DNA from: Bacteroidales bacterium
GTDB lineage: Bacteria; Bacteroidota; Bacteroidia; Bacteroidales; UBA4417
Reading direction: 5' to 3'
DNA: 64,000 nucleotides
Assembly (NCBI GenBank): GCA_963665485.1
Contig: OY762227.1
Coordinates: 1,231,293-1,295,292 of the forward strand
Both the position numbers and the translations under genes were made by a program. Shown here piece by piece: positions 19,508-57,253 of this stretch (the stretch's first letter is position 1; each line of letters starts with the position of its first letter). The notes below the pieces were generated by a model that saw only the letters and a program-made list of their open reading frames with translations, did no database searches and was not told the DNA's origin.

Positions 19508-19549
19508 GTTTCATTTCTGTATTCCTTTATAATCAATAATTTCAGAATT

Positions 19550-36674: not shown

Positions 36675-36693
36675 TTTTAACCAGATAAGTATT

Positions 36694-37125: not shown

Positions 37126-37190
37126 TTCCGCGGCCCGTCTCCTTCAAGCAACTAATTCCGGCAATAATACAATTTTCTAACTTGAATAAA

Positions 37191-38405: not shown

Positions 38406-38478
38406 TCTTTTATCATATATCAATAACCCAATTAAATAATCTTCAGCAATTTTTACACCCAAATAAATTAAGTTTAAC

Positions 38479-39597: not shown

Positions 39598-40167
39598 TTT
39601 GTTATCTACAGTCACTTTCTCATTTTATTCTTCACTAAATAATCTTATACTTACTGCCAACCCCTACTGTCGCTTGTTTGTTCTGCTGTCAGTATAATCC
39701 TCCCGTTTACACACTTCTGGATTTCATGACGGTGTTGGCTAATCACTTAAATACATTGTTATATTTCACTAATTTACAATCATTTAACTGCATTTATAAC
39801 AACACAACATACAAACTCTAACCGCCATTGTTATAATATAATGCCCAAATAATTTGTTTAGGCATAATTTTGGGATTACCTTTACAGTGCCCTCACGCGC
39901 GATTAAAAAATGTTCATATATCTTCTAGCAAGTCCTGTTTAACAGGTAATGTTTAGCAATTCCATTATCATCCAGGTACAGGTAATAATACAACGGGCAA
40001 TTGTAGTTGATTCAGGTAAAGCAGTTAACTAATCAACAGGACAAGCAAAGTATATTTCTTAGGGTATCAGGTGATAAAGCCCACCAATTTCAGCCCCCAA
40101 TGAATAGCTATGCCCTATTATTAAATTCATCCGCCTTTGTAATTGCGTTTATAGGCAGTAGTTGTTT

Positions 40168-42174: not shown

Positions 42175-42757
42175 TTTGTTTCCAATATGAGTTTGGTATT
42201 ACTTCCGTTATTATGTTAATTGTCCTCTCTTCAATTAATCTATTACCAAATAAATCCAAGAAGTTCATTTCTGTTGGGAATACATCTCTTATTTTTATAA
42301 AAAAATCGTTACCATTCTTTGTTAGTTGTAACCTTGGGTTTTTATTATTTGTATCTGTTTTGTATTCTATTAAATTTCTAACAAATAGATATAGAAACAT
42401 GTCATTAAAGCGTATATCCCAAGGAACACTTTTGTACTGTACAATATTAAAATCAATTTCAACTAACCTAGATGAACTAAAACTCTTTATTTTTTCAAGT
42501 ATGTTTTTCTGACCGCTAAAATATTCTATTATAAATTTGGATTGGAAAGCTTCATTACGCAACAAAAAGTCAACACAAGCTATTACATTTTTACTCAATC
42601 CAAACTTGGTATTGAGCATTCCGAGTATTACAATTATTCTTGTTGCCCGATATTGTATTCTATCTTCGGGCTGAACATATATCGGCCGGTCCAAGTTGAT
42701 ACTTGGCTTCATGTCGTTTTTAGATATAGCTTGTATTAAATAATCAAGTCCTTCCAT
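42152..42757 (-). CDS. Middle component of the three-gene ABC ATPase system (LmuC / ABC-3C MC-like)
   Basis: 201 aa with no enzymatic motif. Sandwiched between the effector and the ATPase, overlapping both (14 nt and 23 nt). Confidence 0.55.
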   Translation of the reverse strand: MEGLDYLIQAISKNDMKPSINLDRPIYVQPEDRIQYRATRIIVILGMLNTKFGLSKNVIACVDFLLRNEAFQSKFIIEYFSGQKNILEKIKSFSSSRLVEIDFNIVQYKSVPWDIRFNDMFLYLFVRNLIEYKTDTNNKNPRLQLTKNGNDFFIKIRDVFPTEMNFLDLFGNRLIEERTINIITEVIPNSYWKQNVEINNK

Positions 42758-43712
42758 TTTTTCTCCAATCTAGTGGGCATTCTGCGGCTAATTCAAATAC
42801 AACACCGTGTAGTAGTTTCTGTTGGTCATTTCTTAATTTAAAATCACTATAAAAAGTTAGAATTTCATTTTCTGCTTCTTCAAAAAAATCATGAAAAAAA
42901 TCTTCGGGAGTATATGTAGGGTCAATGTTGAATTTATGTGTCAGCCTATGTGCTTTTATTCTTAAATTATCTTGCCAATTTATAATATTGGTTCTTAGCT
43001 CAGGATTTAAATCAATTAAACTTTCTAGATAGACTTTATAGTTTGCTCTAATTCTATGATAGAAAATTCTATTTCCATCATCTTCTCTAAGCACAGAATT
43101 TAATTTTTGATCTAACGTTGTTTTTAATTTATTATCTTCATTAGGATCTTTGTCTGTATCTTCAATTCTAATTAAATCCGTAAATTGTAAAGCGTCTTTT
43201 TGTTGAATGAGATTATTAATAATCACTTTGATTCTATTAAGTTCATAATCTTTGTCAAGAACTATTTCACAATTGGTTTTATCATAAACCTTAATATAGA
43301 CTTTTTCATCTAATGCGAATAACTTTTGTATGTCTTTGTCAGGAGTCCAAAAGTCTACTGGGTATTTGAATTTGTTAATTGCATTTGCTTGAATATTATG
43401 GTCAATATTGCTTAAATTCTGAAGGGGTGAAAGTGCAATAAAAGCGGTAACGTTATAACTTGAAGCGTCAAGTTGCATTTGTTTGTTGAAAATATCTTTC
43501 CAATATAGGTTTGACGTTGTATAATACTTGCATTCAATGAAGAATGACCTTACTTGATCATTTTCGTCAAAAAATTGAATGAAAATGTCAAAACCATTTT
43601 GGTTACCTGAATCTTGCTTTCTTATCTCAATTACTACGAATCCCATTTTTTCAAATATTTCTTTAAAAAATGGTTTTATGAGTTTCTCAAAATCACTTCC
43701 TGTAATCGGCAT
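42744..43712 (-). CDS. Effector: N-terminal Mrr-like PD-(D/E)xK nuclease fold plus helical C-terminal domain (LmuA / ABC-3C effector-like)
   Basis: GSDFEKLIKPFF...GFDIFIQF...FFIECKYY gives a D...ExK arrangement. The C-terminal ~170 aa is predicted helical. Confidence 0.65.
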   Translation of the reverse strand: MPITGSDFEKLIKPFFKEIFEKMGFVVIEIRKQDSGNQNGFDIFIQFFDENDQVRSFFIECKYYTTSNLYWKDIFNKQMQLDASSYNVTAFIALSPLQNLSNIDHNIQANAINKFKYPVDFWTPDKDIQKLFALDEKVYIKVYDKTNCEIVLDKDYELNRIKVIINNLIQQKDALQFTDLIRIEDTDKDPNEDNKLKTTLDQKLNSVLREDDGNRIFYHRIRANYKVYLESLIDLNPELRTNIINWQDNLRIKAHRLTHKFNIDPTYTPEDFFHDFFEEAENEILTFYSDFKLRNDQQKLLHGVVFELAAECPLDWRKNGRT

Positions 43713-43989
43713 ATTTTCTATTAGTTATACTTTCTATTGTTGTCGCGGGTCGGTTTTACACTTGCTGCCAACTGGTATATAACATCAAATTTAGGTCACT
43801 TTTATTTACAAATATCAATTCGTCTTATTTATATTCTAAAAATTTAATTCCATATCAGGTCTGCCTCTTCCTGTTATTGTTTTGTGATGAGTGTCGTTAC
43901 AATTTTCCTGCTACCAGTATTCTGAAATTCAAAACTATTGCTTATATTGTGATAAATCTTTTGGTTAATTTTTAATCATTTCACTAGCT

Positions 43990-44553
43990 ATGTTTCCAAT
44001 GATCACAGATTCTGAATACATCCGCTATGATGGTAAAACACAGCTACATCTGGCATGTAAGGATGGTAATGTAGTCCAGGTAAAAGAATTATTAAACCTT
44101 GGTGTTGATAAAAACAAACAGGATTCACATGGTTTAACAGCACTCCATATTGCGAAAAACATTGAAATTGTTAAAAAACTGATCGAAGCAGGGGCTGATC
44201 CAAATCTTCAGGATTATCGTTCCGGCTTTACTCCGTTAATGGATTCTATGGTATGGTGGAATACAGATAAGTATGCTTTATTAGTACCTATAACCAACTT
44301 GAATATTAAGAGCTGTTTTGGCATTACTCCATTAATGCTTGCTGCAAAAATTCACAGTTTAAAAGACATTAAATTACTTCTTGATGCTTGTGCTGATCCA
44401 TATATCAGGAATTATTCAGGTATGGATTTTTACGACTACTTATTTGACTATGAACAAGCATATATTCTAGAACTATTGCCGGATTTTCTTTCAAAACAAG
44501 CGTTGCGTTTAGATACTGCCTCAATCAAAGTCCTTGAGCGACGAATCCGATAA
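43990..44553 (+). CDS. Ankyrin-repeat protein (cytoplasmic)
   Basis: Repeats GKTQLHLACKDGNVVQVKELLNLGVDKN, GLTALHIA..IEIVKKLIEAGADPN and GITPLMLAA. No signal peptide. Confidence 0.8.
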   Translation: MFPMITDSEYIRYDGKTQLHLACKDGNVVQVKELLNLGVDKNKQDSHGLTALHIAKNIEIVKKLIEAGADPNLQDYRSGFTPLMDSMVWWNTDKYALLVPITNLNIKSCFGITPLMLAAKIHSLKDIKLLLDACADPYIRNYSGMDFYDYLFDYEQAYILELLPDFLSKQALRLDTASIKVLERRIR

Positions 44554-44554
44554 A

Positions 44555-46470
44555 AAATATAAAATATCATGGGCGTTCCCCTCGGCTTTCTGCTGTGCCT
44601 CGGGTCAGGCTATACGCTTCAAGTCCTCGTTCGGTCCTCACTGCGGGCTTTTCGCTTCTATCCTTAACGCAGTTCTACAAGACTTTTTTTGCAAGAGCAG
44701 GTTGTTGTGTTTTTTCAATAGGCTGCTATCGCTGTGCCTATCTTCAAAAATCACATAGGTTGTTGACGTGTAGCTTATGTTTTTTAATTGTTTTTGTAAG
44801 GGATTGATCTATCATTCATACTTCATTCCTTCGCTACGCTTCATTCTTGCAGAGCACGTCTAACGCCGGGTTTCATGCAGAGCCTCTTCACGGAGTGTTC
44901 AAGATCCTCTTGAAAATCTGTAGACCAGTGGCACCCTATGCCCTTCGAGTTTTAAAATCATAAACTTCATTTTTTGTTTTTGATTCATAGTTTGAAGAGT
45001 TATTGCCGGGTTGATCTTTAGTTTTGAGTTGAAGAAGTTATTGCTGAGTTGGTTTTGTGAATCTTTCTCTCTATGGTCTTCCTCCTTGTCAATCATTCAA
45101 TCATGTTCTTTCCGCCAACGCCCAGGCAGTGCCGGATGGCTGCCAGGTCGCAATTTTTTGTCACGGTATTTGCAGAAAAGCAAATACAGCGAGCCGCGCC
45201 AAAAAAATTACTACTGTCATCCACCGGGAAGTTACTTTACATAATAGGCTCTTATGGTCTTGGTAGAAAGCCCATAAGCCCATTATGTATAAAGCCTAAA
45301 GGCAAGTAACCACTGCCTGCACCTACGCAACCTGCCCACTCTGCACACTTTCCATGCAGTTGCAAGCCATTCAATTACTCGTCCCTCGTAATCTCATGCC
45401 TTTCACTGCCGCACAGCAGCAAATATTTCCTCGTGCCTCGTCATATCAGCTGCTAAGAGCTTCCCACGTTCCAGTTAGACAAGTATACAAGCCGGTGAGC
45501 ATTTTGTTTACAAGTCAGTTCTACAAGTGACGAGCAGCAATCTGTGAACCCAACACACTTGCCATGTTGCTGCAAGCAATTGTCCTCTTCCTCCTCCTAC
45601 GTCCTCCTTGTTTCGTCACCTCTCAGTCTGGCAGGTTCGTACTTCCCGGACACCTGCTATCGCACATTCCAACGTAACGGTGCCCGCAAAGTACACGCAT
45701 AAAGCAAAGCCTCATTCTTCGGCTCAGCTTTTAAGTATGCTTCACCAGCCAGCCTTCAAGGATGCCTTCACTGCGTCGTCCTCCATCGTCGTCATCGTCC
45801 AATCACTTTCGCAACCCCACAGCAGCAAGCTCGTATGGTTACATTCATTACTGCCTGCGCACCTTATTTCGGCTCACCAGACACCTTCTATCACACAACC
45901 TTTGTTACGGCGTCTGGCAAGCACGAAATCCCCTGTAACGTAATCCATTTCACCATCCAAGCCAGCTGCTAAAGCCTCCCCACTTCCAAAAAGAAGCGGT
46001 ATTTGTATGCGCTATCGCCCTCCGGTTGCTCGTTACAGCGCGAGCCACAGCGTGCGGTAAAGGTCGGTTATGCAATTTATCCAGTTTTATCCTTATTATT
46101 CCCTGCCTGCTGCCTAGGCAGTATTTACTCACCGTCAATTCATTGCTTGTTTTTTATAGGTATTGCCGTCTCATTTATACTGCCCCACGCTGCCCTTTTC
46201 CTTCACATTTATCCAATGTTACAAATACGTTACCACCATATTTTATTTGGAGCTTGCATATCAACTGCCTCCGTCCAAATCATTTTAAATTATTGCCTAA
46301 AGAGGTGGATTTTTTCAGGAAAAGAAAAAGGGAAAAGAAAAATAATGAAACGAATATAAAGTAGCATTCCAGCAAATTCAAGGGCTGGATAGCAGCAACA
46401 TTATTTTCTTTTTCCTTACGCACTTTTACGCTGCATATCCAGGCTGAGCCGCGTTCGTTTTTTTTTAAAT
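44555..46470 (+). other. ~1.9-kb ORF-free, C/T-rich (G-poor) region with internal degenerate repeats; possible long non-coding transcript
   Basis: Only short overlapping low-complexity ORFs occur, in all three + frames. In two sampled 60-nt lines C is about twice G. Ends at a strong + strand terminator. Confidence 0.5.
44992..45063 (+). repeat. Two tandem ~36-bp repeats
   Basis: TTGAAGAGTTATTGCCGGGTTGATCTTTAGTTTTGAG is followed by TTGAAGAAGTTATTGCTGAGTTGGTTTTGTGAATC. Confidence 0.6.
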
Positions 46471-46600
46471 AACCTGTTTAGGATTTACTAAGCAGGTTTT
46501 TTCATTTAAAAAAAAGCCGTCTCGCGCCCTTGATTTTGCTTCCATGCTTCATTGCCTGATGGTTTCCTTTTTTTCTTTTTTCCCTTTTTCTATTTTTTCC
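46316..46600. repeat. Long imperfect inverted repeat (~70-nt arms, ~140-nt spacer)
   Basis: The left arm AGGAAAAGAAAAAGGGAAAAGAAAAA...GCATTCCAGCAAATTCAAGGGC pairs with the right arm GCCCTTGATTTTGCTTCCATGC...TTTTTCTTTTTTCCCTTTTTCTATTTTTTCCT. Confidence 0.7.
46471..46502 (+). terminator. Rho-independent terminator (11-bp stem, 6-nt loop, T-run)
   Basis: AACCTGTTTAG-GATTTA-CTAAGCAGGTT followed by TTTT. Only one G-U pair in the stem. Confidence 0.7.
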
Positions 46601-46662
46601 TAAAAAAATTGTGGAAGGGGTGCTAAAGGGAAGATTGGACTAACCACCAAAAACTTTTCAAC

Positions 46663-47094
46663 ATGCAGAAAATCACTACTTACAGCCCCGATCAAAAGCG
46701 AAGCCCCTTCGCCTTTTTCATCCTGAACAAAGGAATGAACAGCGGCAAACCCCTGGAGCATCCCTGTCCAAATTGCTTCACTTTCAACGCCAAAAGCCAG
46801 GAAGAAAAGGATCATAATTTCTGGCTCTGCTTCGGCCTCTGGCAATCGAAAACTTTTCATCCCTACCTCTCCGGTTCTGTTATCCCTTTCATTCACCTTC
46901 GTGATCTGAACCAGGTAATCAATCAGGCATCCGAAAAAGCCCAGGCAAGCCCGGCCAACTTTCAAAAAACCGTCGAAGCTCTCAAAATTCTCGATCAGCA
47001 TGAAAAGAACTACCACAGGAATCTCCTGCTAATTTCCGAAGCCAAAAAGGCAATTTTTGCAAAATATCGCTCAGTTCCATCATTCTACCGGTAA
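46663..47094 (+). CDS. Small protein resembling a half HsdS (target-recognition-like N-part plus conserved S-subunit coiled-coil helix)
   Basis: 143 aa. FFILNKGMNSGKPL and the C-terminal QKTVEALKILDQHEKNYHRNLLLISEAKKAIFAKY resemble HsdS conserved-region helices. Resemblance judged by eye only. Confidence 0.4.
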   Translation: MQKITTYSPDQKRSPFAFFILNKGMNSGKPLEHPCPNCFTFNAKSQEEKDHNFWLCFGLWQSKTFHPYLSGSVIPFIHLRDLNQVINQASEKAQASPANFQKTVEALKILDQHEKNYHRNLLLISEAKKAIFAKYRSVPSFYR

Positions 47095-47158
47095 TCTCTT
47101 AAACCCAATATTAACCCCGCCTGGCTGGGAAACTGGCCAGGCATAAAATCTCAAAATC

Positions 47159-47392
47159 ATGACACAAAAACCTGTTAAAATTCTCAAAGAAACAGCCGAA
47201 AAACATGGCTATTATTTATTCGGTGGTAAAGGTGACGTTTGGAGTAACACAGCCCATTTATCAAAAGGCATGATGGCAACCACATTATGCGGAAGGCCAA
47301 TGCTAAGCACGAACTGGGTACGCATTGAGGCAGTAAATGCAGTTGGCTGCGCTGAGTGTGCTCGTCATTTTAAAGAAGCAATTTCAATTTAA
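47159..47392 (+). CDS. Small Cys-containing hypothetical protein (77 aa)
   Basis: ORF with Cys residues at LCGRP and GCAECARH. Same strand and tight spacing with its neighbours. Confidence 0.45.
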   Translation: MTQKPVKILKETAEKHGYYLFGGKGDVWSNTAHLSKGMMATTLCGRPMLSTNWVRIEAVNAVGCAECARHFKEAISI

Positions 47393-47442
47393 TTAACCAG
47401 GTGCCTGGGCCTACTGGCCCGGGTACCCTAATTCTTTCATCC

Positions 47443-47688
47443 ATGACACAATCCCAAACCATCAGTAGAACCTTCCGTTTCGTTTATAATCTCCCATCAG
47501 ATTTTATAGAAGAAATCTGGTCTGACAGTCCAATCCTGGCAGAACACCTCAAAGCCAAGTTCACTGGCTTCTGCAAATCCGAAGGCTATGCCTCAGCAAA
47601 TGCCATCCTTAAATTCTTCGCTTCCCTCGATGAATCCAATTCAGAGAAATTTTGCAACTATGCTTCCACCTGGATGCAAAACCATTAA
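47443..47688 (+). CDS. Small hypothetical protein (81 aa from the ATG at 47443)
   Basis: ORF in the same operon-like array. No family recognised. Confidence 0.4.
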   Translation: MTQSQTISRTFRFVYNLPSDFIEEIWSDSPILAEHLKAKFTGFCKSEGYASANAILKFFASLDESNSEKFCNYASTWMQNH

Positions 47689-47754
47689 CCCCCGAATCTC
47701 ACTGTAATTTTCGGAATCTAATCCAAATTTTCAAACCCTTAAAATCCCATCCCT

Positions 47755-47973
47755 ATGAAAAAGTACTTCAACGATCCCCGCCCTCTTACCGTCAGGTACC
47801 AGGGCTCTTGTGCAGAATGTGGCACCACCCTCAAAAAAGGCTCAGCAGCTTATTACTGGCCTTCCGATGGTAAAATCTATTGTTTATCCTGCGGTGAATC
47901 TGAATACCGGCAGTTCCTTTCTGCTGCAGCTGATGAAGATGTTTACCAGGGCATCGGAAATCCATTTGCATGA
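47755..47973 (+). CDS. Small zinc-ribbon protein (CxxC...CxxC)
   Basis: 72 aa. GSCAECGTTLKKG...KIYCLSCGESEY. Confidence 0.5.
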   Translation: MKKYFNDPRPLTVRYQGSCAECGTTLKKGSAAYYWPSDGKIYCLSCGESEYRQFLSAAADEDVYQGIGNPFA

Positions 47974-48218: not shown

Positions 48219-48869
48219 ATGAAAATATGGTCCTTATTTTTTTGTGTTATTTCCTTTATGTTTTCTTTTATTTCGTGCAATAACGTAAATTCAAATGACA
48301 GATTAGTTGCCGATACAATTACAAACATTAATAAGCAAACGAGTTATTCGGATTCGATAGAAATTACACCTATCCCAAATAGTTTCCTAGATCTAAAGTT
48401 AGGCACACCTTTTTCTGAATTTATTGCTAATTATCCTAACGCACATCAGCAATTAGATGAATTTTATACACTTGATTTAGGCCTTATGGGCAGTGTAATT
48501 TATTTCGATGACATGGACAGGCCGTACATTCTTGATAATGTTAAAACCAAATCTGGCGATGAATTAAAACTTAGTGCATTTTTCGTGAATGATAGACTAG
48601 CAGCAATTTACGTGGAGTTCAAAAATGGTGTATATGCTGCTGATAATGTTTATTCTGCATTTAAAGATAAATATGGAGATCCTACATATTCAGAAATAAA
48701 GTCAGAATATCATAATACAAAGTCTTATTATTGGATTGCCCCAAGTTGTGTTTTAAATTTTCTTTATAAATCAGATATTGGAGATCTATTTTTAGTGTTC
48801 GCCGATAGAGCTGTGCAGGATAAAATAGTTGATAAAAGAAAAAAGAAAAATTCTGAAAGTATTGAATAA
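48219..48869 (+). CDS. Lipoprotein, function unknown
   Basis: Signal plus lipobox (FMFSFISCNN). AT-rich gene. Confidence 0.6.
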   Translation: MKIWSLFFCVISFMFSFISCNNVNSNDRLVADTITNINKQTSYSDSIEITPIPNSFLDLKLGTPFSEFIANYPNAHQQLDEFYTLDLGLMGSVIYFDDMDRPYILDNVKTKSGDELKLSAFFVNDRLAAIYVEFKNGVYAADNVYSAFKDKYGDPTYSEIKSEYHNTKSYYWIAPSCVLNFLYKSDIGDLFLVFADRAVQDKIVDKRKKKNSESIE

Positions 48870-48947
48870 AAGGCAAATTCCGAAATCGTTCAAGTACGAT
48901 TTATTTTCAATTACATGCGAGCAATTATTTCAGCATTAATTCTTTAC

Positions 48948-49010
48948 TCATAATGCCTACACCCTCCCAACCTCCACCAGCCTCTTCCTGTTCACTATCA
49001 CCTATGCTTG
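48948..49010 (-). pseudogene. Relic of a second terminase-large-subunit 3' end
   Basis: The reverse translation VIVNRKRLVEVGRV* parallels the true TerL C-terminus VMVNRKRMVKVGHFGYSQQ* (49736-49800). The DNA shares CCTCTTCCTGTT and flanking bases. Confidence 0.55.
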
Positions 49011-49223
49011 GCAACCACATTTATAACCTCAATTGTGTAGATGGTGAATACTATCAAATCCTTGTTTATTAGGCGGATGAAGTCGATTAAAAATACCTCT
49101 ACAATCTTTTTGCCAACTAATATACTAAAAGAAATATATTCTTTCCCAAGCACTGCGAAGCAAAAGATTTTTTTTTAATTTTATCTGTATCAATTTTAAT
49201 TTGAACTTTCTTAAATTAACGTT

Positions 49224-49655
49224 ATGTCATTAGAGTTTAAGGCAAATGACAATTTTCAAGATCTTGGATCTTTAGGAGAATTTTGTAGAAATTTTGGTAC
49301 ATGTCATATTAAAATAAAGGATAAGACAGAGCTTAATATTTGTTTAACTATAAAATCCAATCAAGATATTGAATTTATATTATATTGTTCTCGCCCTCTT
49401 TCCCATATACTAAGAGAAATTAAAGGATTTCCAGTTGATTTTGATAAATACCGAATTTATAGAATTAGAGCAAATAATGGAAGGAAATACATCAGAGTTT
49501 CGCAGGTCATCAATATTGATGTAGACCCTAATATCCCTGAAAAGGAATATGAAATGCAAATAGAAAAGATGAAAGGGAGTGTTCGTCTAACATATAAAGT
49601 TGATGATTTGATAACTCAACCACCCAGTTCCTCAGATAATCTGGTTGCATTTTAA
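49224..49655 (+). CDS. Hypothetical protein (143 aa)
   Basis: ORF between the terminase relic and the intact terminase. No family recognised. Confidence 0.45.
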   Translation: MSLEFKANDNFQDLGSLGEFCRNFGTCHIKIKDKTELNICLTIKSNQDIEFILYCSRPLSHILREIKGFPVDFDKYRIYRIRANNGRKYIRVSQVINIDVDPNIPEKEYEMQIEKMKGSVRLTYKVDDLITQPPSSSDNLVAF

Positions 49656-49735: not shown

Positions 49736-50923
49736 TTATTGCTGAGAGTATCCGAAGTGCCCCACCTTCACCATCCTCTTCCTGTTTACCATAACTTTGG
49801 CTAACAGAGCATACCTGGTTGCATCAATCCCATGATTGAATTTATCAATCGGTTCATTGGTTGCTTTTCCTGCCTGGTCTTCCTTCCATTTATAATTCTT
49901 AAATTCCCGGATCAGGTTAACCGATCCTTTGGTGATAAATACCTTATACCGTTTCATAATATCCAAACCAGCCAGAATGCTGTCCTTCCCCTTAAAGGTA
50001 GCCTGGATATTAAAACCTTCCTTCTTAATCTCATAAATACACTTTGGCTGGTTATCTGCTATAACCTCATCAGTCCATTTCAATCCCAACTCTCCAAGCC
50101 ATTTGGCAATATCCTGGTTAGTCAGACCCCGGTTATAAATCAGCTCTTCCAGGAACAAATCACCACCACTCAACCCTACTTTTATTAATGCTGTTGGATC
50201 ATTCGAGAAACCAAAATCCATTCCGTAAACTACCCACTTGCACTCAGCTGGGAATGCTTCACATTGTTCCCAATTCGTGAAGATCAAACCCTTTATCTGT
50301 CCAGGCAATCCAAGACCATAAACCCGCCAGTAATTTTCATCAACATATTTCAGCTGCTCAATCTCCTTCACAACCTCTGCCGGTAGAAATTCTTTATTAT
50401 CCAGGTAGGTAGACTGAATAAATGTGCAATCCTTCCTTGGGATCACCAGATCATAAATCCAGTGTTCTTCCATGCTGGGATTGTAGTCTATGAAGATTTG
50501 TTTCTCTGTCCTGATAGAAAGCTGAATCCAATCCTCAAGACTCAATTCATTTGCTTCATTAATAAAAAGATAGGTTCGCTTCGCTCCCCTCTTTTTTTGA
50601 GGCTGATCCAGGCTGACAAACTCGAAAAGGTTCCCATTGAGCACATAAGTGCTTTCAGTCTTGTTGTGGAACCGTTCATCATACAGATTCTCATTCTTCA
50701 GTATCTCAAAGAAATCCCTCATAGCTGAGGCTTTCAGGCTGGGCATTGTTTTTCTGACTATCGTGAATACTGCATCCTTTTCCTCAAAGGCTTTTACAAG
50801 GATAAGAAGCTGTAGGATCGAATATGTTTTCCCGCTCCTTGAACTCCCTTGATTGACTACAATCTTCGTTAAAGCCTTGTAATTCTTATCAAAAACAACA
50901 GATACCCTAATCTGCTTTTCCAT
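49736..50923 (-). CDS. Phage terminase large subunit (PBSX-like)
   Basis: Walker A QGSSRSGKTYSI, an ATPase coupling region and a C-terminal nuclease-like region. ATG at 50923 (GTG at 50929 also possible). Confidence 0.8.
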   Translation of the reverse strand: MEKQIRVSVVFDKNYKALTKIVVNQGSSRSGKTYSILQLLILVKAFEEKDAVFTIVRKTMPSLKASAMRDFFEILKNENLYDERFHNKTESTYVLNGNLFEFVSLDQPQKKRGAKRTYLFINEANELSLEDWIQLSIRTEKQIFIDYNPSMEEHWIYDLVIPRKDCTFIQSTYLDNKEFLPAEVVKEIEQLKYVDENYWRVYGLGLPGQIKGLIFTNWEQCEAFPAECKWVVYGMDFGFSNDPTALIKVGLSGGDLFLEELIYNRGLTNQDIAKWLGELGLKWTDEVIADNQPKCIYEIKKEGFNIQATFKGKDSILAGLDIMKRYKVFITKGSVNLIREFKNYKWKEDQAGKATNEPIDKFNHGIDATRYALLAKVMVNRKRMVKVGHFGYSQQ

Positions 50924-51242
50924 CACCACTCCTGATTACTTCAAAGGTTATCTTGCTGATTTTGTCATCAGCTGGCCCTAAATCCAGATTCATTCTTTGC
51001 AGTTTGGGCCTTACAAATTCTTGGAGGTTCAGCCACAATTCAATTTGTTCCTTTGGCCTGAGCTTACTCAGATTCTCTTCCAGGCTTTCATCCAACAGGG
51101 ACAAAACCCATTCAATTCTTTGTTTTTCTTCAGCGGTAGTTTTATTTACTGCCCCTTTAGGCTTCCCGGGGTTGCCTTTCCCAAACTGACCTTTGTGATT
51201 CCTGGTTGTGGATTTGGGTTCATTACATTCATTCGTATTCAT
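50907..51242 (-). CDS. Terminase small subunit-like (DUF5681-like) protein
   Basis: 111 aa. GQFGKGNPGKPKGAVNK motif. Overlaps the terL start. Confidence 0.55.
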   Translation of the reverse strand: MNTNECNEPKSTTRNHKGQFGKGNPGKPKGAVNKTTAEEKQRIEWVLSLLDESLEENLSKLRPKEQIELWLNLQEFVRPKLQRMNLDLGPADDKISKITFEVIRSGDGKAD

Positions 51243-51313
51243 GGTTAATAAATTATTCCATTATCTGCTGAAATTCTCAACAGATTCCATCAGGTAAATA
51301 CCTGGTATTATTT

Positions 51314-51559
51314 TTACTTGCGGTAAATCATTTTTTCGATGCAACTGACAGAAATATCGTACTCTATACTAAGCTCATATTTAATATCTGCATAAGTACG
51401 GTTCTCTTTAGCTTTCTTATAGTAGAGTTTCTTCACCAGCCATTTTCTGGCATCATTTACATGAAGGATTCCTTCGCGGACAACTTCTCTAACATCAATT
51501 CCAAATTCAGTTTTCAAATCTTTTATAATTCGTTCTGAATACTTTAAATCTTCTCTCAT
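51314..51559 (-). CDS. Small HTH protein (Mor/late-activator-like, tentative)
   Basis: 81 aa. C-terminal RTYADIKYELSIEYDISVSCIEKMIY resembles an HTH. Sits at a divergent AT-rich promoter region. Confidence 0.3.
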   Translation of the reverse strand: MREDLKYSERIIKDLKTEFGIDVREVVREGILHVNDARKWLVKKLYYKKAKENRTYADIKYELSIEYDISVSCIEKMIYRK

Positions 51560-51673
51560 AAAGTTAATAATTATATAGTTAAATATTACAAATATAGTTC
51601 AAAATAAAAATTATAGCAAATATTTATAATATAAATTGCCAAGATGTACTATATATTTCGTCTATCTATAGCT

Positions 51674-51681
51674 TAATTTTG
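51674..51681 (+). promoter_or_regulatory. Bacteroidota -7 box (TAATTTTG) upstream of the head operon
   Basis: Perfect TAnnTTTG in the AT-rich divergent region, about 155 nt upstream of the first micro-ORF. Confidence 0.4.
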
Positions 51682-51836
51682 TAACCTTAATATATATGAA
51701 CAAATATCAATTTTTAAATATTATAACTAAGAAATTTACTGATATATATCAAAGTCATATCAGGCAATAATCTTACAGTTTTTTAAATCCTGATGTCAGG
51801 AATTCTGGCATTATAATTCTCCTAAATTTCTCTAAA

Positions 51837-51956
51837 ATGGCTAAAACCAACGTGAAAACCACAGCATTACCTAAGTTAAAAACATCTAAAAAAGTATCAC
51901 AACCGTATCAAAGAGCAAGAGGTGGTGGCGCCGATCTTGCAAAAAACGTAAAGTAA
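51837..51956 (+). CDS. Lysine-rich micro-protein 1 (39 aa)
   Basis: MAKTNVKTTALPKLKTSKKVSQPYQRARGGGADLAKNVK*. Not in the ORF track (under 60 aa). Paralogous to the next ORFs. Confidence 0.55.
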   Translation: MAKTNVKTTALPKLKTSKKVSQPYQRARGGGADLAKNVK

Positions 51957-51976
51957 AATTCATAATCCTTTTCACC

Positions 51977-52090
51977 ATGGCAAAAGCAAATGTAAAATCA
52001 GGTTCAAAGATCAAGGCTAAATCCACTCCCAAAACTCCCAAAAAAGGAGTAGGTAAGTCTGGTTCTGAGCTTCAGAAAAATGTAAAGTGA
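51977..52090 (+). CDS. Lysine-rich micro-protein 2 (37 aa)
   Basis: MAKANVKSGSKIKAKSTPKTPKKGVGKSGSELQKNVK*. Its stop overlaps the next ATG (TGATG). Confidence 0.55.
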   Translation: MAKANVKSGSKIKAKSTPKTPKKGVGKSGSELQKNVK

Positions 52091-52209
52091 TGGCAAAGCC
52101 AAAACAAAAACCCGTAAAAAAAGCTAAGCCTACCGCTTCCTCAAAAACGGTTGTAGGTAAACGCAAACCTCATACATCGAAAGACGGTACAGGTAAATCC
52201 ACTATTTAA
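52090..52209 (+). CDS. Lysine-rich micro-protein 3 (39 aa)
   Basis: MAKPKQKPVKKAKPTASSKTVVGKRKPHTSKDGTGKSTI*. Same MAK start but lacks the C-terminal motif. Confidence 0.5.
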   Translation: MAKPKQKPVKKAKPTASSKTVVGKRKPHTSKDGTGKSTI

Positions 52210-52231
52210 TTAACTCTAAATTCTCATTCAC

Positions 52232-52390
52232 ATGAAGTCCTACTTTTCAAACAACAGTAAACAGTTTTCCGGTGCTGACCTGGTTAAAAACGTCAAGCGC
52301 TCTATTGCTTCCAAAACTTCAAAGACCTCCAAAAAGTCTAAAGCTGGTAAAAAGGCCGGTGGTTCTGAGCTTACCAAAACTGTAAAATAA
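52232..52390 (+). CDS. Lysine-rich micro-protein 4 (52 aa, motif present twice)
   Basis: MKSYFSNNSKQFSGADLVKNVKRSIASKTSKTSKKSKAGKKAGGSELTKTVK*. Its stop overlaps the ATG of the 404-aa gene (TAATG). Confidence 0.55.
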   Translation: MKSYFSNNSKQFSGADLVKNVKRSIASKTSKTSKKSKAGKKAGGSELTKTVK

Positions 52391-53604
52391 TGCACCGCTA
52401 TTTCTCAACACCTCCAATCTTCTCAGCCCCTGTAACCAACATCAACAGGGAGCTGGGGATTATTCAGGGAATAACAATCGCCCGAATTGGCCCGGCTAAA
52501 GGGCATAATGGGTTTATCGACCGTACTTTTCTCTTACAAATAATTGATAATGCTGCTTCAAGAACAGCCGGAGTTAAAGCTAGGTTCGGGCATCCGAATA
52601 TGTGCAGTTCTGCACTAGGAAGCTATTTGGGAAGGTTTAAAAACTATTCCTATTCCGGTGATCAGGTCAAAGCTGACCTTCACTTGGATGAAACAGCAAA
52701 AAAGACACCTGCTGGAGACCTGTATTCCTACATCTTGGAAATGGCAGAAAAGAATCCGGACATGTTTGGAGCATCCATCGTCTTTGAAATTGCAGAATCT
52801 GTATTCCTTCAGGAAGAGGTTGAAGGTCAAAAAGTAGAGAAGGAATACTTTCGGCTCAAAGAACTGAAAGCAACTGATATTGTTGATGATCCAGCTGCAA
52901 CGGATGGTTTGTTCTCAGCCAATACGTTTCCGGGAATCGCAACTCAGTTCCTTGATGAAAACCCTGAGATCATGGACCTAATCTTTTCCAAACCTGATTC
53001 TATTGTCGAATTTCTTTCAAACTATATAACCTATACAAAAATGAATTTATCATCAAAAATAAAGGAGAATTTTGCAGCCTTCCAGGCTGCATTCTCCACA
53101 ACGCCATCAATAGCAACAATTCCGGATAAACCAATCCAGGATGAACCAATTTCAGAAAGTGACACGGTGAACAGTTTATTTGTTGCTCTCTGTGCTACAT
53201 CGCCTAGGTCTTTCACTAATGTCAATGATTACACCCCACAGCAGAAAGTTGAAGCTTTAACTTCACATTTTCATAATGTGAATGACAGACTAATAAATGT
53301 GACTGAACAAAGCAGGGCAACAATGGCTGCAAATGAAGAGATAAGCACAAAATACAAGACATTACTTGAGCAATCAGACAAGCTTTCAGAAGAATTCAAA
53401 GTCACTCAAGATGAGCTTGAAATTGCAAATACTCGTATCCAGGAACTCACCTTACAACTTTCCGCACGTCCTTCAATCCCTCTTAATGTAACTGATCCCG
53501 CTGTAAGTCTGACTACTAACCAGGTCAAGGATGAAACCGGCAAACAAATTCTTGCCGCAATTCCCATAGACCTCAAACGAAAGTTAGCCTCCAATACCCA
53601 ATAA
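52390..53604 (+). CDS. Putative prohead protease / scaffold fusion protein
   Basis: 404 aa. The N-terminal ~170 aa has His/Ser-containing blocks (GPAKGHNGF, ARFGHP, FGASIVF). The C-terminal part is a coiled coil (EEISTKYKTLLEQSDKLSEEFKVTQDELEIANTRIQELTLQL). Lies directly upstream of the capsid gene. Confidence 0.45.
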   Translation: MHRYFSTPPIFSAPVTNINRELGIIQGITIARIGPAKGHNGFIDRTFLLQIIDNAASRTAGVKARFGHPNMCSSALGSYLGRFKNYSYSGDQVKADLHLDETAKKTPAGDLYSYILEMAEKNPDMFGASIVFEIAESVFLQEEVEGQKVEKEYFRLKELKATDIVDDPAATDGLFSANTFPGIATQFLDENPEIMDLIFSKPDSIVEFLSNYITYTKMNLSSKIKENFAAFQAAFSTTPSIATIPDKPIQDEPISESDTVNSLFVALCATSPRSFTNVNDYTPQQKVEALTSHFHNVNDRLINVTEQSRATMAANEEISTKYKTLLEQSDKLSEEFKVTQDELEIANTRIQELTLQLSARPSIPLNVTDPAVSLTTNQVKDETGKQILAAIPIDLKRKLASNTQ

Positions 53605-53653
53605 TTTATTCAAATATTAAATGATCTCTCATAATTTATAATTATCCAAAACT

Positions 53654-55003
53654 ATGTCCAATATTTTTTCTCAAACCACATCCCCCGCCTTCAAACGCCA
53701 GGCAGTAGATGAATACTTCATTCAGCCCATGTTTATGGCTGAAGATATTCGCGGGCTAATTACTGTTCGTACTGATATAAAAGGCACTGAAACTCTCAAT
53801 AGAATTGGTCGCCCTTCCATGTTAACTAAACCAAAACTCAACCCAGGTTTTACTCCCGCAGGAGGTTTCAACCTGACTTATACTGACATTACTGTTAAGC
53901 CCATGTCGTTGGAATTCGAGCAAAATGCACGCTCATTCTGGGGTTCAATAGTTGAACAATTACTTACTTCAGGATATAAAGAGGACGACGTTGAACAGAT
54001 GAAATCCCCTGATGTATGGAACAAGGTCATGCTTCCTTTAATTGCTCAGGCTGGTCAGGATGACTTGATCCGCCAGATGTTCTTTGCCAATCCCACTGCC
54101 GAAGCTTTTACATCAGGTATTCCTAATGGTATTCTAGATTCAAACTATACTGGCTACACGGGCTTTATGTCCTGGCTCTTTAATGATTTGTATGCCGGTG
54201 TTATTCCATCCGTTCAGCATGTTCCCATTGCCTCAGCAGTGGCTTCTGTTAAGCAGGAAGTAATCCATACCTATACTGCCGGAACAGATACAGCACTGAA
54301 TATCACCATTAACGGCGTCCTTTATACTCAGCCTTATGCCACAAGTGCAGCCGCAACTGCAACCGCCTGGCTTAATACAAACAAAGCTTCTGTTGAAGCT
54401 CGTGCAGGCATTAATGGTGTTATTGTTACTAATCCTTCAGCAGGTGCAATTAAAGTGACAGGAAAAGTTAAAGGTCAAAGCTTTACTTCTGTTGCAACCG
54501 TGACCGGAACTGGTACGGTAGCAAACTCTGGGATAGTTGCAGCTGTTAAAGCCGGAGGTTTAGCTGCCAATGAAGCTGACCTTACTCTTGAATCCATGCT
54601 CGATGCTGTTACTCCTGAAATGCATGAATATGATCTCCAATTCATGCTAACAGCTTCCATGTGGCGCAACCTGGTTCACACACTGAAGGATCGTCAAACA
54701 ATCATGGGTGATGCAGTTTTGAAAAACGGGCTCAAAGTTCCTACCTACGAAGGTTTCCCGATCATTGTTCGCCCTGATTGGGATAAATGGATCTCTGTTG
54801 CACAAAATGGTATCAAGCCACACCGTGCCATGCTTACAACCTCAAAGAACTTGCTTTTTGCAACTGATGGAACCTCTGATTCTGAAATGATCGAAACCTG
54901 GTACAATCAGGAAGCACAAATGCGCAGGTACCGTGTTCAGTATAAAGCCCAAACTGCTTACCTCCACAAAGAACTCATAGTCCTTGCTGGTTTCAATGAC
55001 TAA
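53654..55003 (+). CDS. Major capsid protein (HK97-fold candidate) with an internal Thr/Ala/Gly-rich insertion
   Basis: 449 aa. Called from its position after the protease/scaffold gene, and from its size and composition. Not verified by search. Confidence 0.55.
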   Translation: MSNIFSQTTSPAFKRQAVDEYFIQPMFMAEDIRGLITVRTDIKGTETLNRIGRPSMLTKPKLNPGFTPAGGFNLTYTDITVKPMSLEFEQNARSFWGSIVEQLLTSGYKEDDVEQMKSPDVWNKVMLPLIAQAGQDDLIRQMFFANPTAEAFTSGIPNGILDSNYTGYTGFMSWLFNDLYAGVIPSVQHVPIASAVASVKQEVIHTYTAGTDTALNITINGVLYTQPYATSAAATATAWLNTNKASVEARAGINGVIVTNPSAGAIKVTGKVKGQSFTSVATVTGTGTVANSGIVAAVKAGGLAANEADLTLESMLDAVTPEMHEYDLQFMLTASMWRNLVHTLKDRQTIMGDAVLKNGLKVPTYEGFPIIVRPDWDKWISVAQNGIKPHRAMLTTSKNLLFATDGTSDSEMIETWYNQEAQMRRYRVQYKAQTAYLHKELIVLAGFND

Positions 55004-55099
55004 TCACCTTGCTCTGGTGCCCCCTTCTCTTCCCCTCCAAAGAGATGGGGCCTGGGGTGAGTTTTTTCGCACATCACTTTCCTTACTTACCTTTTCACT

Positions 55100-56353
55100 A
55101 TGAAGGCTTTCTCAAACTATAATTATGTTCCTCTTTTAAATCTTAAACGTTCTGACTTTATAGATTTACGGACTAATTATGATATTTTCATTCCTTTTGG
55201 TGAGGATAACTTGCTGCCAACACAGCTCAATCAGTTATCCAGAGAAGTACCTGTCCATCGTGCAATCCTTAATTCAAAAGCTTCCTATATCCTTGGCAGA
55301 GGATTGTCTTCTGATAATAAAGTAATTCAGAAGCTGATCAGTGCCCCTAATAATACATTTGAAGACCTTAACTCAATCTTTCGTTATGTAATTCTTGATT
55401 ACCTGAACATTGGTAATGCTTATGTTGAAATCATTACCGATCCTAATAAATCCTTCATGTACTTGTATCATATTGATTCAAGCAAATGCAGGTTATCTGC
55501 GGTTGAAAATGATGTTTTAATACATCCTTCATGGGCAGAGTTCAAAGGTAAAAATGATGAAAACCTTATTTCACTTCCTCTATTCCCTGATTTCAGGAAA
55601 GGCCCTGATGGGCTTTTGCATTCGGTTTATCATATTAAAGATTATGAACCAGAGTTTTATTACTATGGTTTGTGCTCATACTTTGCGGGGCTTCGTTCAA
55701 TAATCATTTCCGGGCTTACAAATCTTTGGAACCAGAACAGGCTTGAAAATGGATTCACTGCTCCAGGTTTACTTATTATTCCCGGCATTAATGATGAAGA
55801 TGATGCTACAGCCCTGGATGAAGAATTTAGCAAATTTAAAGGTGTTGACGGTGAAAAGTCAGGTGATATTATCATTCAGTACCTTGCTGATTTATCCCCT
55901 GGGCAAACTTCACAACAGGCAAAGTTCATTGAGTTTAAAAAGAATGAAGAAGGTAACTGGATGGACTTACATACTCAATCTGAATTGTCTATCATTACAA
56001 TACACAATTGGTTTCGTTCACTAACTCCTTATTCAGGTGAAAAAACTGGTTTTGATTCTAACCGTATTGTCAATGAATACGAAATTGCACTCAACACAAT
56101 AATTAATCCCCTGCAAACCTTTTTCCTGCGGCACCTCGATCAAATCTTCAAGTATTTCTCATTACCTCTCGGAAAGCTATCATTTATCAACGAGCCACCC
56201 ATACAGCGAATCAATCCTTTGAAATTCGTTTGGGAAGCCCGGCAAGATGCTGGACTTTCTTTTGACCCAAATGATCCTGTGCAGAAATTGCTGATTATGC
56301 AGCTCAAAAACACATTCAATTCAGCTACACCAGATACAGGTTCCACTGTTTAA
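55100..56353 (+). CDS. Phage portal protein candidate
   Basis: 417 aa in the head module. The N-terminal region LSREVPVHRAILNSKASYILGRGL resembles portal-family N-termini. Confidence 0.5.
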   Translation: MKAFSNYNYVPLLNLKRSDFIDLRTNYDIFIPFGEDNLLPTQLNQLSREVPVHRAILNSKASYILGRGLSSDNKVIQKLISAPNNTFEDLNSIFRYVILDYLNIGNAYVEIITDPNKSFMYLYHIDSSKCRLSAVENDVLIHPSWAEFKGKNDENLISLPLFPDFRKGPDGLLHSVYHIKDYEPEFYYYGLCSYFAGLRSIIISGLTNLWNQNRLENGFTAPGLLIIPGINDEDDATALDEEFSKFKGVDGEKSGDIIIQYLADLSPGQTSQQAKFIEFKKNEEGNWMDLHTQSELSIITIHNWFRSLTPYSGEKTGFDSNRIVNEYEIALNTIINPLQTFFLRHLDQIFKYFSLPLGKLSFINEPPIQRINPLKFVWEARQDAGLSFDPNDPVQKLLIMQLKNTFNSATPDTGSTV

Positions 56354-56363
56354 TTCTGCCCAT

Positions 56364-56777
56364 ATGCCAATCATAGCAGCCACAGAGATTAACTCAATAG
56401 CATTCTCCACTCCAATTGATCCGGCTTTGATATTGGATGAAATAATCAATGCCGTAGAAACTAAATTTATTATTCCGGCCATCACGAAACCTGTCTATGA
56501 TGACCTTTCAATTCATCCAGGCATCTATACCACCCTTATTGCTGATTACATAAAGCCTTACCTTGCTTATTGTGTAAAGCTCTTACTTTACAGTCAATAT
56601 CAGCTGGAAATCTCAACATATTCAAGCCTCAACATGCAAAAGGATGATATTGCTAATGAAATCAACAAAATCATCCAGACAAAGAAAGATATACTGGTAA
56701 ATCATCTCTCAACTGGAATTTATCCACTTTATATTTCATCTGCAAAAAAGCGTATATCAGGTTTTTTAATAAAATAA
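56364..56777 (+). CDS. Head-module protein (possible head completion/connector)
   Basis: 137 aa, 10 nt after the portal stop. No motif recognised. Confidence 0.3.
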   Translation: MPIIAATEINSIAFSTPIDPALILDEIINAVETKFIIPAITKPVYDDLSIHPGIYTTLIADYIKPYLAYCVKLLLYSQYQLEISTYSSLNMQKDDIANEINKIIQTKKDILVNHLSTGIYPLYISSAKKRISGFLIK

Positions 56778-56789
56778 CATGCGTTTACT

Positions 56790-57041
56790 ATGCTTGAATA
56801 TCTCGCAATACTTGCAAGTTTTATCACAGGCGGTGGCATTTCAACCCTTATTTCCCTTCGCTACATCCGCAAAGTCGGTAAGATCGACTATACCGAAAAA
56901 GCCATTGCCTTTATTGAAAAGCAATATGATGATGTCTTAACTAAAAATAAAGAGCTTCATGAAAGGGTGACAGCCCTGGAAAAGCTTATTCCTTTGGTTT
57001 GTTTCAAAATGGATTGCACTCAAAGGCAAAAAACCAAATAA
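56790..57041 (+). CDS. Small membrane-anchored coiled-coil protein
   Basis: 83 aa. N-terminal TM helix (YLAILASFITGGGISTLISL), then a coiled coil. Last gene before attR. Confidence 0.35.
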   Translation: MLEYLAILASFITGGGISTLISLRYIRKVGKIDYTEKAIAFIEKQYDDVLTKNKELHERVTALEKLIPLVCFKMDCTQRQKTK

Positions 57042-57124: not shown

Positions 57125-57138
57125 CCAATATTAAAAAA

Positions 57139-57169
57139 AGCCTGCAATCGTTTGATTGGCAGGCTTTTA
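57139..57169. terminator. Bidirectional stem-loop terminator
   Basis: AGCCTGCAAT-CGTTTG-ATTGGCAGGCT is flanked by an A7 run on the left and T4 on the right. On the minus strand it follows the tRNA-Arg 3' end with a T7 run. Confidence 0.65.
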
Positions 57170-57177
57170 TATACGTA

Positions 57178-57200
57178 AAAGTGACCCCATCGGGATTCGA
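57178..57200. repeat. attR-type direct repeat (3' 19 nt of tRNA-Arg plus 4 nt)
   Basis: Identical to 19355-19377. Confidence 0.9.
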
Positions 57201-57253
57201 ACCCAAATCTTCAGAACCGGAATCTGAAATTCTATCCATTGAACTATGGGGCC
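57182..57253 (-). tRNA. tRNA-Arg (anticodon CCG)
   Basis: The reverse complement GGCCCCATAGTTCAATGGATAGAATTTCAGATTCCGGTTCTGAAGATTTGGGTTCGAATCCCGATGGGGTCA folds as a cloverleaf. Acceptor GGCCCCA/TGGGGTC, anticodon stem TCAGA/TCTGA, loop TTCCGGT. Confidence 0.9.

Follow-up and report, generated by a model that had tools for sequence, protein, structure and literature searches.

A head-only mobile island at a tRNA-Arg gene in a Bacteroidales genome as a candidate capsid-forming phage satellite

Introduction

Phage-inducible chromosomal islands of the capsid-forming kind (cfPICIs; Alqurainy et al., 2023) are, as outlined in the summary given by de Sousa et al. (2023; PMC10085698), satellites that encode their own heads and use the tails of helper phages. 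Their definition forbids holins and tail-associated proteins, and in the SatelliteFinder survey satellites were found mostly in Proteobacteria and Firmicutes (PMC10085698). The subject here is a mobile island of 37.8 kb inserted at a tRNA-Arg gene of a Bacteroidales bacterium (lineage UBA4417), within a 64,000-nucleotide stretch of contig OY762227.1 (assembly GCA_963665485.1, positions 1,231,293 to 1,295,292 of the forward strand) that is called the window and to which all coordinates refer. The island ends on its right-hand side in a module of head and packaging genes and was found to hold no tail or lysis genes; we read it as an integrative, helper-dependent, capsid-forming phage satellite that is cfPICI-like in its mode of action, and give this reading about an even chance of being right. 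A search of the full-text literature returned no description of cfPICIs or capsid-forming satellites in Bacteroidota, with one unrelated co-mention.

The satellite P4 has no capsid, portal or terminase of its own, remodels the capsid of its helper with Sid and has Enterobacteria as its host range. Gene transfer agents (GTAs) occupy single, fixed loci and are inherited vertically, without integrase, att sites, a replicon with its replication genes or self-packaging specificity, and RcGTA encodes a tail. The nearest cultured relative of the head lineage described here is BS-TP3 (PQ571276.1), a temperate Bacteroides phage of 57.5 kb with holin, endolysin and large virion genes, which was the only match to the major capsid protein of the island among deposited phage records.

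Island boundaries and insertion site

The island lies at 19378-57176 between the two copies of a 24-nt exact direct repeat that matches the 3′ end (about 20 nt) of tRNA-Arg(CCG):

19354-19377: left att repeat, an exact match and the displaced 3′ piece of tRNA-Arg
57177-57200: right att repeat, within the intact tRNA-Arg(CCG) gene (57181-57253, minus strand)

These are the only two copies in the window even with three mismatches allowed, with none expected by chance, and a tandem array of elements was ruled out as no third att copy was found there. With the head module at the right-hand end of the island, attP would lie, in the circular form, between the integrase gene and the final gene on the head side. 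Terminator-like hairpins were seen beyond the att core at 19310-19353, outside the island on the left, and at 57133-57176; both ends share a 68-nt repeat that is 71% identical overall, with differing hairpin stem sequences. The hairpin common to both ends suggests that the element carries its own terminator look-alike for the downstream side of the tRNA. A sigma-70 scan for promoters was uninformative, as is to be expected in Bacteroidota.

Head and packaging genes

The head module consists of three minus-strand open reading frames (ORFs) divergent from five plus-strand ORFs, with a conserved small ORF preceding the protease/scaffold gene:

49736-50929, minus strand: large terminase subunit (TerL), 397 aa
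50907-51242, minus strand: candidate small terminase subunit (TerS), 111 aa
51314-51559, minus strand: f5, a conserved 81-aa protein
52232-52390: conserved small ORF
52390-53604, plus strand: protease/scaffold protein, 404 aa
53654-55003, plus strand: major capsid protein (MCP), 449 aa
55100-56353, plus strand: portal protein, 417 aa
56364-56777, plus strand: f4, 137 aa, all-helical, directly after the portal gene
56790-57041, plus strand: f14, 83 aa, with an N-terminal transmembrane segment and a coiled coil

TerL matches Terminase_3 (5.5e-23) and Terminase_3C (2.8e-17) above the Pfam cut-offs, as well as phrog_2 (4.5e-39). The 111-aa candidate TerS has no match of its own to the hidden Markov models (HMMs) of Pfam or PHROGs and is assigned by position, sitting in the slot that in relatives of the module holds recognisable TerS types (families f40 and f114). 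Its neighbour f5, present in 44 of the 67 loci described below, may be DNA-binding.

In the case of the protease/scaffold gene, the 404-aa protein itself gave no direct HMM match. In an alignment of 28 diverse homologues, the N-terminal domain (about 210 aa) contains conserved Asp residues and two invariant motifs, KARFGHPN.C and NPDMFGAS, and is followed by a variable linker, a coiled-coil half and a conserved C-terminal tail; a Pfam scan of the family matched 7 of the 28 members to PF05929 (Phage_GPO, the P2 gpO capsid-scaffold serine peptidase) and 4 of them to Phage_scaffold. The motif pair, the coiled coil and the seven PF05929 matches mark the protein as a fusion of a P2 gpO-like prohead serine protease with a coiled-coil scaffold.

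Direct sequence matches of the MCP are weak (phrog_1623 at 3.6e-7, and 4e-7 by tblastn to the capsid gene of BS-TP3, annotated ‘XkdG’), and it has no Pfam match, nor have 10 relatives of about 330 aa. A profile built from 16 homologues aligned with the BS-TP3 MCP at an hhalign probability of 97.3%, and a model made with AF2 from a 62-sequence alignment (pLDDT 82.5, pTM 0.78) gave 216 Foldseek matches in the PDB at E≤1e-3, the 50 listed being without exception capsid or encapsulin shells of the HK97 fold; the top match among those listed is P2 gpN in the P4 procapsid (7jw1), and major capsid proteins in BFVD match down to 6e-18. Profiles of the MCP and of the protease/scaffold protein returned nothing useful from PDB sequences, such that both identities were settled by structure prediction and family-wide Pfam scanning where sequence searches missed. 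The combination of a gpO-like protease/scaffold with a gpN-like, HK97-fold MCP indicates a head of P2 type. An exhaustive HMM search found 484 MCP relatives, many of them about 330 aa long and without a central segment of about 110 aa, which in the window protein (residues about 190-300) is modelled at high confidence and may be an insertion or decoration domain.

The portal protein matches phrog_11226 (2.2e-17) and also phrog_12, aligns by BLASTP over nearly its full length with the portal of BS-TP3 (5e-8), and scores under the cut-off for Pfam Phage_portal. Immediately downstream, f4 is present in 46 of the 67 loci and from its position and conservation is a candidate head-completion or head-tail adaptor protein. 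The last gene, f14, was found in 6 loci; its architecture, as judged from sequence, is holin-like.

BS-TP3 shares with the island the same unusual order of protease and MCP genes with the portal further downstream, the homologous MCP, and a portal in the same PHROG. It differs in that its protease is of the ClpP type and not gpO-like, and the MCP identity is only about 28-30% and confined to the C-terminal third. The shared order of protease, MCP and portal makes it probable, on comparison of the genes, that the head module was captured from BS-TP3-like phages.

An original prediction, made from the sequence alone, had proposed a fully bounded element with TerS-like, TerL, protease/scaffold-like, major-capsid-like and portal-like genes and two further small genes. 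ORF calling reproduced its gene coordinates exactly, the bounds are borne out by the att repeat pair and the tRNA-Arg(CCG) gene, and both small genes are present after the portal. TerL is firm through Pfam and PHROGs, the capsid call is upheld by hhalign and the structural matches, the protease/scaffold call by its family, and the portal call by phrog_11226 and the BS-TP3 alignment, while the TerS-like call stands as far as the slot of the gene in relatives goes.

Absence of recognisable tail and lysis genes from the island

Searches of the island ORFs, hypothetical proteins included, against Pfam and PHROGs gave zero matches to tail or lysis families, which upholds the proposal that such genes are missing; the low-GC cargo block described below likewise has no PHROG tail or lysis match. 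Neither a tail, a lysis cassette nor a lysogeny switch, as would mark an intact tailed prophage, was detected in the window. The same scans gave no matches to the P4-type genes sid, psu, delta and epsilon.

Relatives of the head module

The MCP has 218 word-indexed homologues, all from Bacteroidota-type metagenome bins, and some 90 related loci (numbered with the prefix L) were gathered from Bacteroidales metagenome-assembled genomes, with 67 distinct full-length capsid genes among them. Across these 67 loci the protease/scaffold gene was found in 62, the portal gene in 62, TerL in 52 and f4 in 46, the shortfalls lying mostly at contig ends. The recurring order is f5, TerS and TerL on one strand, divergent from the small ORF (where present), protease/scaffold, MCP, portal and f4 on the other. 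A minus-strand tRNA gene lies shortly past the head end in at least 11 relatives, and at least seven tRNA species (Asn, Arg-ACG, Ser-UGA/CGA/GGA, Leu and Gly) were found beside head modules. The family to which the integrase of the window belongs, INT15, adjoins the head module in L013, L017, L058, L072 and L086, and in L025 a family-related integrase stands at the far end from the head, as in the window. No recognisable tail tube, sheath, tape measure or baseplate was found in the roughly 90 loci and none of them is a full prophage, such that the head-only layout proposed for the window recurs across the family.

Pairwise ratios of nonsynonymous to synonymous substitution (dN/dS) for TerL, protease/scaffold, MCP, portal and f4 range from 0.03 to 0.20 at dS of 0.5 to more than 2 (0.04-0.05 for TerL and 0.04-0.19 for the protease/scaffold), and by these ratios the head module is under strong purifying selection. 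Relatedness varies from gene to gene, indicating recombination and a mosaic history. All seven head-module ORFs of the window are full length when compared with their relatives. In the closest relatives, L006 (MCP identity 95%) and L010 (84%), f4 likewise closes the module right beside the tRNA, so that the minimal right-hand end is a conserved state of the clade and not a private truncation of the window copy. L003/L056 stands out as a visibly decayed relative: its TerL is truncated, its protease gene is broken up and its integrase is present as fragments.

Within single metagenome bins the head module occurs in three to five diverged copies, with MCPs 62-88% identical to that of the window, as in the groups L008/L010/L013/L020, L042/L044/L046/L052, L032/L039/L043/L047 and L030/L040/L050. 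Many contigs break at the element, as expected from such repeats. On the 5.47-Mb contig that contains the window itself there is a further capsid gene with 95% identity and a further DUF6943 gene with 81%, and the genome thus carries at least one sibling element.

In L079 and L080, two IMG/VR contigs that are the most distant relatives (51-55% MCP identity), BT4734_N primase-like and DUF5906 helicase-like genes were observed at 215-2329, a few genes from TerL; from their domains these are predicted to provide the shared head module with another kind of P4-like replicon. A DUF805 RNA motif (RF03081, 85 bits) at 1016-1083 in the flank of L040 is probably host sequence and unrelated.

Receptor-binding and lysis genes in more distant relatives

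In a clade with 61-65% MCP identity to the window, f4 is followed by F6 (115 aa) and then by F8, a 405-aa beta-roll protein resembling the tail spikes or fibres of phages of Flavobacterium and Verrucomicrobia. The small, beta-rich F6 was found in 32 of the 67 relatives and is absent from the window, and its profile found no match among PDB sequences. F8 is sometimes followed by transmembrane proteins and by an endolysin that matches phrog_7 (1e-44) or phrog_315 (5e-32). Other matches to tail fibres or spikes were found in L072 (482 aa), L080 (594 aa) and L018 (335 aa) and in families f117 and f126; some of the fibre matches are to ‘head decoration’ or ‘head fibre’ families, and these proteins may accordingly decorate the head and not form a tail. 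In L051, L057, L068 and L075 the F6-F8 pair is tandemly duplicated with diverged second copies, an arrangement that resembles the diversification of a receptor-binding cassette. The window copy and its closest relatives have no receptor-binding or lysis genes.

Integrase, replicon, regulator and cargo

The remainder of the island, from the left att repeat to the head module, has the following features:

19466-20812, plus strand: tyrosine integrase (Arm-DNA-bind_5, Phage_int_SAM_5 and Phage_integrase), reading away from the att site
21038-23545, minus strand: GmrSD/HEC-06-type type IV restriction enzyme
23546-27656, minus strand: type IIG restriction-modification enzyme, split into two overlapping ORFs (848 aa, helicase/T5orf172; 523 aa, Eco57I methylase)
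27628-28826, minus strand: two methyltransferase fragments (225 aa, and a 137-aa HsdM_N)
29238-30839, minus strand: DUF3987 protein (PF13148, 7.1e-55)
31221-31502, minus strand: HTH_17 (AlpA/Xis-type) regulator or excisionase (PF12728, 5e-8; weaker MerR_1 match)
32068-44553: low-GC (about 0.30) cargo block of 12.5 kb with DUF2441, TPR, WG-repeat and ankyrin proteins and a Lamassu operon
40168-43712: Lamassu operon, with LmuB at 40168-42174 (3.5e-66) and LmuC at 42152-42757 (5.9e-6)
42744-43712: candidate Lamassu effector, 322 aa, without a match
44560-46640, minus strand: conserved ORF-free block of about 2 kb, GC 0.45, G-rich on this strand
46663-47973, plus strand: small-gene set of DUF6943 (46663-47094), a 77-aa ORF, f11 (47401-47688) and f12 (47755-47973)
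48219-49655, plus strand: variable slot downstream of TerL with two cargo ORFs (216 and 143 aa)

The integrase is full length and stands beside the att repeat at one end of the island. From its family, the DUF3987 protein is a putative P4-alpha-like primase/helicase and would be the replication gene of the element. The HTH_17 protein is assigned to the AlpA/MerR/Stl-type regulators at the level of its domain, and a homologue comes after the integrase in L025. Domain searches matched the integrase, the Xis-like helix-turn-helix protein and the DUF3987-type replication gene of the original prediction, while its KilAC-like protein found no such match among the island ORFs. Its mention of defence cargo is filled out by three systems, namely the type IV restriction enzyme, the split type IIG restriction-modification enzyme and Lamassu.

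Within the variable slot, at 48959-49007, lies a second copy of the final stretch (some 40 nt) of the TerL coding sequence, about 0.8 kb downstream of the original at 49760-49798. The duplication brackets the low-GC 143-aa cargo ORF (49224-49655) and recurs in L003 and L008, which suggests that the 3′ end of TerL is a recombination hotspot for cargo.

Conserved non-coding block and hairpin

The block of about 2 kb without ORFs is 75-95% conserved in the head-bearing loci L008, L010, L020 and L069, a conservation at least as high as that of the proteins, and parts of it are internally paralogous. Together with DUF6943, f11 and f12 it also occurs in headless elements (L090, L091, L092, L096, L102 and others), where DUF6943 is accompanied by small genes of 82 aa and 73 aa. 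These headless elements are tRNA-associated, with DUF6266, or DUF5675 and SNase, filling the slot ahead of the tRNA or integrase. Homologues of DUF6943 number 1719, those of the MCP 218.

RNAalifold applied to 16 copies of the best-conserved 250 nt predicted 56 pairs, 5 of them with compensatory changes, plus a hairpin of variable length. The clade with F8 has a different conserved non-coding block, about 1.7 kb long, G-rich on the minus strand and beside TerL, which could not be aligned with that of the window. A hairpin with the invariant 9-nt loop GAGGGACGA is common to both types of block:

45373-45393, minus strand: GAGGGACGA-loop hairpin in the window
about 6705-6725 of L066, minus strand: GAGGGACGA-loop hairpin

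The loop is closed by the stem AUUAC/GUAAU in 33 copies, by GCCC/GGGC in 13 and by CUUAC/GUAAG in 3; the first stem belongs to the window-type block and the second to the F8 clade. Of the 49 occurrences of the loop in 1.4 Mb of loci, 46 are stem-closed. No Rfam family reached its threshold for the non-coding blocks. The one hit, to Flavo-1, lies at the far end of the block (44599-44680, minus strand) and is sub-threshold, scoring 31.3 bits where the gathering score is 42 (E=5e-4). The block may act as a structured RNA or in cis as DNA, with an origin and a packaging signal among its possible roles. Rrf2, COX1 and PepSY genes to the left of the block (L104, L111, L116) had been taken as host genes marking the end of the element, a reading that was withdrawn because neighbouring genes are common to other elements (L096, L107) and may be cargo.

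Discussion

The gene set fits that of a satellite by virtue of its integrase, AlpA-type helix-turn-helix protein, putative P4-like primase-helicase, and head and packaging genes. Like the cfPICIs, the island is integrative, has an integrase and an AlpA-type regulator, encodes its own TerL, portal, prohead protease and HK97-fold capsid protein and, by position, its own TerS, occurs in several copies per genome, carries accessory and defence cargo and, in the window copy, is without tail and lysis genes. Its DUF3987 protein, of a P4-alpha/VirE-like family, may correspond to their primase-replicase. It differs from them in its phylum, cfPICIs having been reported mostly in Proteobacteria and Firmicutes (PMC10085698), and in its unrelated gene families, which comprise a P2 gpO/gpN-type head and a DUF3987 replicon. 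The TerS and TerL genes are here divergent from protease, MCP and portal, and a conserved 2-kb non-coding block is associated with the island. With P4 the island shares an integrase, an AlpA-type protein, a large predicted primase-helicase replicon, defence cargo in hotspots and the P2-type head lineage, the gpO- and gpN-like genes being here on the element itself; it differs from P4 in encoding its own head genes and in the lack of visible Sid, Psu, Delta and Epsilon homologues.

As a satellite, the island would reside at tRNA-Arg through its tyrosine integrase until induced, presumably by a co-resident or infecting tailed phage, whereupon the integrase and the HTH_17 Xis/AlpA-type protein would excise it and the DUF3987 P4-alpha-like primase-helicase would replicate it. 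Portal, gpO-like protease/scaffold and gpN-like HK97-fold MCP would assemble the element’s own P2-type procapsids, its own TerS and TerL would package its DNA, and f4 would close the portal vertex. An element of 37.8 kb would fit into a P2- or HK97-class head with T=7 geometry. As the island has no genes for tail, receptor binding or lysis, all three would have to be supplied by the helper. While integrated, the cargo of type IV restriction enzyme, type IIG restriction-modification enzyme and Lamassu would benefit the host.

Of the satellite proposal in the original prediction, the part that stands is the head-only gene set, strengthened by its recurrence at tRNA genes and by selection; the dependence on a helper is one that we infer from the gene set, as are induction, excision, self-packaging and the hijacking of tails. 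A number of observations weigh against the reading. Where the right flank extends for 5 kb or more (40 loci), 23 loci have a family of receptor-binding proteins (fibre, spike or BspA-type leucine-rich repeat), and where it extends for 7 kb or more (32 loci), 5 have an endolysin. The cfPICI model forbids such components, and a pure tail-stealer should need neither. HNH, a core component of cfPICIs, was not found among the island ORFs scanned, and no second connector protein, also a core component, was found in the window element; f4, the one candidate, gave a low-confidence helical AF2 model (60-sequence alignment, pLDDT 62.6), nothing meaningful in Foldseek, and negative results both with its profile against PDB sequences and with hhalign against the ‘head-tail adaptor’ of BS-TP3. 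DUF3987 was not found beside the head module in any relative within 10-kb flanks, such that its linkage to the head is seen solely in this window. The restriction-modification cargo looks partly degraded or rearranged, and at 37.8 kb the island is two to three times larger than cfPICIs, which are roughly 10-15 kb. Membership in the cfPICI family is not claimed, given the absence of HNH, the single connector candidate, the different families and gene order, and the forbidden components of relatives.

The same fibre and lysis genes give substance to the main alternative, which we consider unlikely, in which the family would be a lineage of temperate phages, autonomous but very small, whose minimal short tail would have f4 and F6 for adaptor and stopper and one fibre or spike doubling as plug and receptor-binding protein, and the window clade would have lost its receptor-binding and lysis genes and would now be defective or dependent on a sibling element or phage. 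The succession of F6 and the spike-related F8 after the head genes in the 61-65% clade, the transmembrane proteins, endolysin and further transmembrane proteins that often come after F8, and the fibre and spike matches of L072, L080, L018, f117 and f126 all accord with it; L025 looks like a compact whole (integrase, HTH_17, about seven genes, non-coding block, head, F6/F8 and lysis genes), and the second, 95%-identical MCP in the genome of the window could belong to a fuller sibling. However, homologues of adaptor, nozzle, hub or knob proteins were not recognisable in any locus, the endolysin is restricted to the few loci counted above, some of the fibres may belong to the head and not to a tail, and the window clade is without receptor-binding genes and yet keeps its head genes under strong purifying selection. 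That selection also bears on the island as a decayed or domesticated prophage remnant, immobile and with head genes left over or co-opted for a host function, for which the split type IIG gene and methyltransferase fragments, the degraded relative L003/L056 and the lack in the window copy of receptor-binding and lysis genes that relatives have could be adduced. This we regard as quite improbable, as the seven head-module ORFs are full length with dN/dS of 0.03-0.2, the att repeats are intact and the integrase full length, no relative holds the ‘missing’ tail genes as a possible ancestral state, and the recurrence of the same architecture at many tRNA genes and in multiple copies per genome requires recent mobility. 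The decayed prophage offered as an alternative in the original prediction is thus strongly argued against by conservation, dN/dS and recurrent tRNA integration.

The satellite reading and the accretion of two units are not mutually exclusive. In the latter, an island of integrase, defence genes, DUF3987 and HTH_17 would have been joined by a separate element of non-coding block, DUF6943 and head module, and the satellite-like combination would be partly coincidental. The presence of the block, DUF6943, f11 and f12 in headless elements, the excess of DUF6943 over MCP homologues, the 12.5-kb low-GC cargo block between HTH_17 and the non-coding block, and the absence of DUF3987 near other head modules are in its favour, but there are two att copies only and no internal remnant, so that the island today could excise solely as one unit. 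L025 likewise has integrase and HTH_17 at the end opposite the head, the BT4734_N and DUF5906 genes beside TerL in other relatives make a primase-helicase with a head module a recurring combination, and modularity is normal for satellites; we judge accretion improbable as the explanation. The second alternative of the original prediction, a GTA-like or tail-less transfer particle working for the benefit of the host, whose heads, perhaps with head fibres, would deliver DNA without tail or helper, would account for the family-wide absence of tail genes and for the fibre-like proteins that match head-decoration and head-fibre families. The element resembles GTAs of the RcGTA type in being a phage-derived head cluster in a bacterial chromosome with possible head-associated fibres or spikes, and the RcGTA capsid is among the structural matches of the MCP, as are all HK97-fold capsids. 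Set against this, the elements are mobile and multi-copy, with integrase, att sites, a replication gene, varied tRNA targets, diverged copies per genome and a mosaic history, all of which argue strongly against a GTA, and we know of no mechanism by which a tail-less HK97-type head delivers DNA; we hold this explanation to be very improbable.

Returning to the satellite reading, the family taken together may occupy a place between a cfPICI-like satellite and a minimal phage with a short tail. More speculatively, and in our view rather unlikely, it could be a large unrecognised Bacteroidales family of capsid-forming mobile elements of independent, P2-like origin, ranging from head-only forms to forms with their own receptor-binding proteins and lysins and never with a tail tube, which would either equip hijacked helper tails with fibres of their own to retarget them or release DNA from essentially tail-less heads that bear fibres, the conserved 2-kb region with the GAGGGACGA hairpin being an element-specific control or packaging signal.

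If islands of this kind form a widespread family of head-encoding satellites, the cfPICI strategy would extend to Bacteroidota, a major environmental and gut-related phylum, by another independent origin. Prophage predictors will miscall such islands as incomplete prophages. The family would offer a route for the horizontal transfer of defence systems, of which this island carries three, and its graded series, from head alone to head with receptor-binding protein and on to forms with lysis genes, could show satellites arising from phages or regrowing towards them.

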